A stretch of 64,000 nucleotides of DNA, taken from assembly GCA_944388045.1 (NCBI GenBank), contig CALXHG010000003.1, positions 8,912-72,911 of the forward strand, given 5' to 3'. Shown in pieces: positions 41,704 through 41,862 of this stretch; positions within the stretch are counted from its first letter, which is position 1, and each line of letters opens with the position of its first letter. The translations under genes were made by a program, and so were the position numbers. This DNA comes from an uncultured Clostridia bacterium (GTDB lineage: Bacteria; Bacillota; Clostridia; TANB77; CAG-508). The notes below the pieces were generated by a model. The model saw nothing but the letters and a program-made list of their open reading frames with translations, did no database searches and was not told where the DNA came from.

Positions 41704-41862
41704 TTATTGAATAGGAAAAATTGCTTTTTCCTATTCAATAAAAGAGCTTCGCTCAAACGGATGCACACAAATTTTACTTTGTAAAATTTGGCGCGCGAAC
41801 AATAACGCGGACTTTAAAATGTTATAAACATATAAAATGTCTAAAAAAGTCCGCTATTGTTC
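41704..41862. repeat. copy 1 of a roughly 160-nt structured noncoding element (second copy at 50872..51029)
   Basis: About 90% identical to the second copy. Hairpin TTGAATAGGAAAAA-ttgc-TTTTTCCTATTCAA. A 62-nt block identical between copies containing hairpin CAAATTTTA-ctttg-TAAAATTTG. Distal long stem GAACAATAACGCGGACTTT...AAAGTCCGCTATTGTTC. Confidence 0.6.

Follow-up and report, generated by a model that had tools for sequence, protein, structure and literature searches.

The window analyzed in this study is a 64,000-nucleotide stretch of DNA from an uncultured Clostridia bacterium, and its GC content is 24.7%. Pfam domains in the window identified genes for SpoIIR, a MurA-type protein, an AbrB-like protein, two SpmA/B-like proteins, GerMN, UDP-sugar pyrophosphorylase, and phosphoglucomutase. 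This set of sporulation and housekeeping genes is typical of a Clostridia chromosome. A structured sequence, designated here as element A, occurs twice on the + strand, at 41706..41862 (copy 1) and 50874..51029 (copy 2). An earlier note on this DNA had described two copies of about 160 nt, and our alignment upheld this with 92.7% identity over 164 nt. The ends were taken from an alignment of 26 copies, which gave a 156-nt unit, TTGAATAGG...CTATTGTTC, at 41707-41862 in copy 1. The nucleotide before it, 41706, varies between copies and is paired with 41739. The unit is non-coding and has no ORF. The longest identical run of both copies is 71 nt (41740-41810 = 50907-50977). The identical core reported earlier is real and lies inside this run, but the core string as typed is 63 nt and not 62 nt. 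A 30-mer from the core had exactly 2 matches in the window and 0 in 100 shuffles.

Copy 1 and copy 2 have the same direction and are separated by 9,167 nt, an arrangement that attL and attR of an integrated 9-kb island would also show. The intervening genes (GerMN, rsmI-like, abrB-like, spmA/B-like, murA, spoIIR, and UDPGP) are, however, core genes found in the same order in relatives with neither copy, and many further copies of the repeat occur elsewhere. The probability of an island bounded by these copies is therefore negligible in our assessment.

Each copy is predicted to fold into three hairpins, and all the hairpins claimed for it in the earlier note were confirmed by folding and by z-scores. 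In copy 1, H1 (41702..41743, + strand) has a perfect stem of 19 bp and a loop of 4 nt, and its outer 4-5 pairs are drawn from the flanking T-tract. H1 is followed by a 4-bp mini-hairpin, GAGC-TTC-GCTC, and the unpaired GC-rich core AAACGGATGCACAC (together 41744..41768, + strand), which show almost no variation in any copy of the alignment. H2 (41768..41790, + strand) is a 10-bp stem, CAAATTTTAC/GTAAAATTTG. In H3 (41797..41862, + strand), an AC bulge separates the 8-bp outer stem GAACAATA/TATTGTTC from the 9-bp inner stem GCGGACTTT/AAAGTCCGC, which is capped by an AT-rich loop of 30 nt; the final base of H3 is exactly the 3' end of element A. The same parts in copy 2 are H1 at 50870-50910, the mini-hairpin at 50911-50921, H2 at 50935-50957, and H3 at 50964-51029, also on the + strand. 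The MFE was -55 kcal/mol for copy 1 and -61 kcal/mol for copy 2, with z-scores of -8.4 and -9.3, respectively. Across RNA of either strand and DNA, the z-scores were -8.4 to -10.3, and the minus strand folded more strongly than the plus strand. The compensatory pair already pointed out in H3, A-U in copy 1 and G-C in copy 2, was found as described. A second one at the base of H1 had been missed; it is A-T in copy 1 (TTATTGAAT..ATTCAATAA) and C-G in copy 2 (TTCTTGAAT..ATTCAAGAA).

Copy 1 is directly abutted by a terminator-like hairpin and T-tract belonging to ORF 40346..41632 (41653..41705, + strand; MFE -12.0). Copy 2 is abutted by the intrinsic terminator of the UDP-sugar pyrophosphorylase gene (50841..50873, + strand), which is formed by GCTACTGG..CAGTAGC and a T-rich tail. 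The region 3' of copy 2 (51031..51060, + strand) contains a -10-like TATAAT at 51031-51036, beginning one base past the end of the copy, the RBS AAAGGAA at 51045-51051, and the pgm start at 51058. The start is 51058 and not 51004; only translation from 51058 gives a 576-aa product with an exact database record. A promoter-like site at 51007-51036 spans the 3' junction of the copy, and the pgm RBS, 16 nt past element A, is unpaired in the predicted fold. It was correctly seen before that copy 2 lies directly after the pyrophosphorylase gene. Its assignment to a pgm leader transcript is in question, as the copy sits between the terminator and the TATAAT.

The strong predicted fold, the compensatory changes, and the distance of only 28 nt from the end of copy 2 to the pgm start codon could suggest that element A is a cis-regulatory RNA, namely a riboswitch or leader with pgm and the GerMN gene under its control. 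The earlier note had proposed this as one of two readings. We compared the spacers with those of relatives. In the window, the UDPGP-pgm spacer is 229 nt. In three relatives, with PGM identities of 96%, 93%, and 88%, it is 101, 102, and 65 nt, respectively, and element A is absent from all three. In these relatives the gene order is unchanged and the upstream pyrophosphorylase terminator is kept. The GerMN-upstream spacer is 443 nt in the window vs 193 and 118 nt in two relatives that are 87% and 82% identical in the surrounding 20 kb, and element A is absent from both spacers. Since the orthologous spacers of the relatives are without element A, the comparison indicates that both window copies are lineage-specific insertions. 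Among the compared relatives there was no filled/empty pair with otherwise identical flanks, because the spacers have diverged, and the ends of element A are therefore set by the alignment of copies and not to the exact base. In the 88% relative (L041, L042, 2905-3020), the pgm RBS comes only ~15 nt after the pyrophosphorylase terminator, and pgm is probably expressed there by terminator read-through or from a promoter overlapping the terminator.

Next to these local comparisons stands the census of the family. The core 21-mer, from the unpaired GC-rich segment, had 21 exact matches on 19 stretches of two Clostridia MAGs in a species-representative genome collection: 20 in BRZ_ER__bin71 (uncultured Clostridia bacterium) and 1 in BRZ_MP__bin6. 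The matches were on both strands and on many contigs. A profile search found at least 24 copies or fragments, including copies without the exact 21-mer, and so bore out the other earlier reading, a dispersed structured repeat. In an alignment of 23 copies, sharp common ends were found, 5' TTGAATAGG and 3' CTATTGTTC. Head-to-tail tandems were present at two loci (L014 and L017; in L014 with a 156-nt period), truncated copies that stop after H2 at three (L016, L018, and L019), and decayed remnants at two (L013 and L007). A variant of element A was also observed at L005 1880-2060, in which the left hairpin arm is replaced, the core and H2 are intact, and H3 is replaced by a terminator-like hairpin and T-run (GGGTAAAAAAAG...CTTTTTTACCC TTTTTG). 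A metagenome scan with a 20-mer gave two true matches, both at an already-known locus, and two chance matches in contigs of 58% GC. No copy was found in viral contigs, phage records, or plasmid records. The family is narrowly distributed, in one uncultured, ~25% GC, spore-forming Clostridia lineage.

Rfam 15 at the gathering threshold matched only tRNAs and SRP RNA in the window and only tRNAs in the 19 repeat-bearing loci (L001-L019). A permissive search over the copies returned MCS4 at 25 bits (threshold 56) and psRNA14 at 33 bits (threshold 60); these sub-threshold matches are hairpin look-alikes. The neighbours of element A are functionally unrelated genes and form no coherent gene set. 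The usual position after a terminator, and not ahead of a start codon, places it outside both transcription units, and no terminator, antiterminator, or RBS-sequestering platform was found within it or at its 3' end. Together with the missing Rfam match, the empty orthologous spacers of close relatives, and the occurrence of truncated and interrupted copies, these results largely refute regulation of pgm and the GerMN gene by element A, and we regard such a function as extremely improbable. A false riboswitch candidate is thereby removed. For a sequence that is repeated across the genome, a strong fold with compensatory changes between two copies is not sufficient grounds for calling a cis-regulatory RNA.

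The structure itself is maintained across the family. Standard pairs were found in 98.1% of the pair cells of 26 copies, and five pairs were changed on both sides. The observed covariation score was reached by 0/500 shuffles, and slid-register controls gave 43-55% pairing and zero double changes; the copies belong to few subfamilies, and hence the score reflects few independent events. In one subfamily, H2 is one base pair shorter by a deletion on both sides. Three copies have a mixed A/C state in H3, as expected of recombination between subfamilies. Covariation in long perfect palindromes can come from template switching without selection, and gene conversion between copies can have the same effect. 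The earlier note had held that many copies with random substitutions would mean a simple selfish repeat. Many copies do exist, but their substitutions keep the pairing. Because substitutions across many copies still keep pairing, the structure appears to be constrained, and the constraint would belong to a repeated, probably mobile element instead of a gene-specific regulator.

One-sided changes in H3 were mostly G.U-compatible on the + strand (21 cells vs ~7), which hints at an RNA-level constraint beyond the needs of a DNA model; extension of H2 by G.U pairs was seen on the minus strand only. We considered whether element A acts, or has been co-opted, at the RNA level. Transcribed by read-through from upstream genes or from a promoter of its own, it could function as a multi-copy sRNA or as an RNase III or stability element, or it could supply downstream genes with an outward promoter. 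Some MITEs are known to have given rise to sRNAs and promoters (PMC10969869). Element A is co-oriented with the neighbouring genes, an extended -10-like TGTTATAAA is present in the H3 loop, and the promoter-like site lies at the 3' junction of copy 2. Read-through of the spacer is also plausible, given that in the 88% relative the stretch past the terminator is too short for a pgm promoter. On the other hand, most copies come after a terminator, no terminator-like end was found past H3 on either strand, and the -10-like motif differs among copies (TATAAA or TATGAA). The minus strand folds better still, and the decayed and interrupted copies imply that many are dispensable. An RNA-level role is not required by the data and is, on balance, unlikely.

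We then examined where the copies lie and how they end. All copies of element A are intergenic, and the upstream gene is co-oriented with the element in 19/23 cases. The top strand of the element is the G-rich strand of its neighbourhood in 25/26 copies, but gene orientation is a confounder of this bias. A hairpin of -12 kcal/mol or lower with a T-tract abuts 7/14 independent solo copies, compared to 5.8% of 600 intergenic TTTT[ACG] control sites (binomial estimate, P ~1e-5). Such terminator adjacency could reflect tolerated positions instead of targeting. The left flank is degenerate and always T-rich (TTTTC, TGTTC, TCTTC, TTTTA, TTTTG, TTTCA, and TTTCC), and the first base of the right flank is T in 14/15 copies. 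The base before TTGAATAGG is variable (C, A, or G) and pairs with the base after H1 in 15/17 independent copies. The match was found in all five copies whose post-H1 base is not the majority G. In tandems, the base before TTGAATAGG is the last C of the preceding copy.

The 15 full copies were compared at each of 35 boundary offsets, and at none of these did the majority share a target-site duplication of at least 3 nt. Terminal inverted repeats were likewise not found in element A; the ends TTGAATAGG and GAACAATAG share only AATAG, and the hairpins are internal to each end and not formed between the ends. These features bear on whether element A is a classical MITE, derived from an insertion sequence with a DDE transposase and moved by cut-and-paste through terminal inverted repeats with target duplication. 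Element A is small, AT-rich, multi-copy, and intergenic, and a genuine classical MITE exists in the same genomes. It occupies window positions 17763-17995 (~233 bp), has ~37-bp perfect terminal inverted repeats (GTTCCAGTTCAGTAGGAAATTTTGATATATTAATAAT), and is bordered on each side by the 8-bp direct repeat AAAAATTA, between ORFs 16986..17708 and 18115..18873. Palindromic homologues of it were found at five MAG loci (L002, L004, L007, L014, and L015). Element A has neither of its two hallmarks, and its near-absolute orientation bias is not a trait of terminal-repeat elements. Classification of element A with such MITEs is therefore very unlikely.

In this study, we found that element A is multi-copy, lineage-restricted, oriented, terminator-adjacent, and structure-preserving, and that it can be gained, truncated, tandem-duplicated, and interrupted. 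These results strongly favor its being a dispersed, non-autonomous mobile repeat. It is a new repeat family, but an ordinary kind of element that is comparable to MITE, REP, and PATE. The element would be mobilised in trans, and copies are probably made and inserted in one orientation beside T-rich sequence ending in ...TT(C/A/G). A possible carrier is single-stranded DNA handled by an HUH/Y1-type enzyme acting in trans, as for IS200/IS605 or RAYT. H1 and H3 would then serve as recognition hairpins. The junctions, ...TTTTN^ on the left and ...TGTTC^ on the right, would lie at the bases of stems formed with internal complementary segments, namely N'AAAA after H1 on the left and GAACAATA before H3 on the right. 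The position of copy 2 upstream of pgm is most likely an accident of insertion behind the terminator of the neighbour gene and not a regulatory design.

An HUH-type enzyme is favored over DDE cut-and-paste because terminal inverted repeats and target duplications are lacking, because a hairpin is present at each end and the strand bias is strong, and because the 3' end TGTTC resembles the left-flank TTTTC and the tandems are exactly head-to-tail. tblastn of 459 kb with IS200 TnpA, IS608 TnpA, and E. coli RAYT (approximate query sequences) gave chance matches only. All-against-all blastn of this DNA, in which the window and the MAG stretches make up ~215 kb of distinct sequence, revealed no multi-copy coding repeat. 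As no enzyme was found in this ~215 kb, single-strand mobilisation is offered here as a working proposal, and we hold the HUH mechanism specifically to be a possibility of clearly less than even probability.

Element A resembles the PATEs of the IS200/IS605 family in several respects. Terminal inverted repeats and target duplication are both lacking, each end carries a hairpin, and the element appears to insert in one orientation beside a short sequence. Its 3' end TGTTC is similar to the left-flank target (TTTTC, TGTTC, TCTTC), and head-to-tail tandems occur. The strong bias to the G-rich strand may correspond to the lagging-strand-template bias of PATEs, but gene orientation confounds it. 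The pairing of the flank with an internal segment recalls IS608, in which single-strand transposition reportedly involves pairing between a guide and the cleavage site. However, the DNA examined with element A yielded no Y1 transposase or TnpB, and the left hairpin of element A abuts the junction, whereas that of PATE lies ~19 nt inside. The left flank of element A is also degenerate, being T-rich with one variable base, and its sequence is not similar to that of PATE or any other known element.

REP, BIME, and REPIN sequences, which are associated with RAYT, are also structured extragenic repeats that lie downstream of genes, vary in ways that keep pairing, and make no target duplication, with a presumed single-strand HUH mechanism. 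A REP is, however, a single palindrome of 20-40 nt with a GTAG-type head, usually in inverted pairs, whereas the 156-nt unit of element A comprises three hairpins, is without a GTAG head, and occurs either singly in a fixed orientation or in direct tandem. The search of the DNA examined with element A gave no RAYT. Class C group II introns insert right after the stem-loops of intrinsic terminators, in the orientation of the terminated gene. Element A is like them in insertion site and orientation, but it is far too small and is without a GUGYG 5' end, domain V, or a match to an intron in Rfam.

Element A also shares its size, intergenic location, and stable predicted fold, and the clustering and nesting of several small families, with the pneumococcal BOX, RUP, and SPRITE repeats and with bcr1 of the Bacillus cereus group. 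In bcr1, compensatory changes that keep the structure have reportedly been found. Target duplications are made by RUP (TA) and bcr1 (TTTAT), and the ends of RUP are terminal inverted repeats. In element A neither feature was found, and the sequences are unrelated. It also differs from BOX, which is modular (A-B-C), in being a fixed three-hairpin unit. BOX, RUP, and SPRITE are 100-200-nt intergenic repeats of Firmicutes with stable predicted folds that cluster and insert into each other (PMC10969869).

Several other candidates were rejected. For an integron attC site, the RYYYAAC...GTTRRRY ends were missing, and copies in either orientation are scattered over the contigs. The template/variable repeat pair of a DGR was rejected as the copies are intergenic and multi-copy, and a group II intron remnant as there is no 5' GUGYG or domain V. 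The flanks are mostly TTTTC and not GTTC/CTTG, unlike an IS91-type target. A bridge RNA of the IS110 type is unlikely too, judging from the predicted fold, which is without large internal loops.

The site upstream of pgm varied among strains. The exact PGM protein of the window was encoded on contigs of many metagenome samples, and most of these had the pgm-upstream copy. Several such contigs end within element A (L023, L034), as expected of an assembly that breaks at a repeat. In L022, the pgm-upstream copy has a different subfamily variant in its right two-thirds, which could be due to conversion between copies or, less likely, to an assembly chimera. In L036, a 77-nt element B is inserted inside H1 of this copy. 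In two ONAT22-1 samples (L024 1-53 and L025 1-53), the site has no element A and instead carries an unrelated double hairpin, GGCACTAAATTTAATTAGTGCC AGT GCGAACGAAGTTCGC TTTCTTG, located at the exact right junction of element A, |TTATAATAAAATTAG. Both contigs begin at this double-hairpin sequence, and it was not found elsewhere in the DNA examined.

Besides element A, these genomes harbour at least three further families of small repeats. Element B, TTTTGAAAAT...CATATTGTTTC, ending in ...ATTGTTTC, is 77 nt, has no terminal inverted repeats, and always lies 3' of TTTC, usually with CTAT following. It was found at L036 1634-1707, L016 6666-6739 and 3450-3524, L009 6231-6305, L012 3509-3566, L017 4081-4148, and L047 2910-2983. 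In L036 it interrupts the 3' arm of H1, and in L016 it lies in the opposite orientation in the 5' arm, at the same TTTC^CTAT. The 4-nt TTTC at the junction is ambiguous; it could be a target duplication, or the target could equal the 3' end of the element. A B-B tandem was also seen, and one copy of element B is present in the 96% relative, which is without element A. Element C is ~65 nt, CAATAGGAAAGTATAACTTTCCTGTTG...GTTACAATCGCTAGTCTTTTGAGATTTTCTTC, with at least 8 copies that are often directly 5' of element A. It was found at L015 2136-2202 and 5478-5542, L011 5192-5256, L017 4520-4591, L007 4492-4532, L010 2795-2836, and L013 7317-7358. Its hairpin has the motif ATAGGAAA/TTTCCTAT in common with H1 of element A, and an insertion of element B was found in this similar hairpin as well.

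These observations raise the question of whether elements A and B represent an undescribed kind of small non-autonomous element. Such elements would insert in a fixed orientation behind terminators or at sites with a T-tract plus a hairpin, using pairing between flank and guide and an HUH-type enzyme or an RNA-guided recombinase. They would be without terminal inverted repeats and would make no target duplication. The target flank, TTTTN for element A and TTTC for element B, would pair with a guide beside the terminal hairpin, which may be N'AAAA in element A and GAAA at positions 5-8 in element B. This is considered because the flanking base matched the post-H1 base in all five copies of element A with a post-H1 base other than G. 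We give the proposal only a small chance of being correct.

As a dispersed and probably mobile repeat, element A adds a new family to what is found in this uncultured Clostridia lineage, whose genomes are small and very AT-rich. Metagenome assemblies break at these repeats, which also vary among strains, nest in each other, and mark terminator-proximal spacers as hot spots. Of most interest is that insertion is oriented, takes place behind terminators, and involves neither inverted repeats nor a target duplication, and that the flank is complementary to an internal base. The orientation rule and the terminator adjacency provide a concrete handle for finding the mobilising enzyme.

Repeats of other kinds were also observed in the window. 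At ~26400-34100, three tandem, diverged paralogous units of ~2.9 kb each, with a mutual identity of 66-77%, are located upstream of the large ORF 35580..38135, which has a C39-like peptidase domain. Very AT-rich low-complexity tracts with short degenerate repeats (TTATTTTTT / AATAAA-type) were found at 2590-3120 and 42600-42790, and these tracts show up as many overlapping direct-repeat families.
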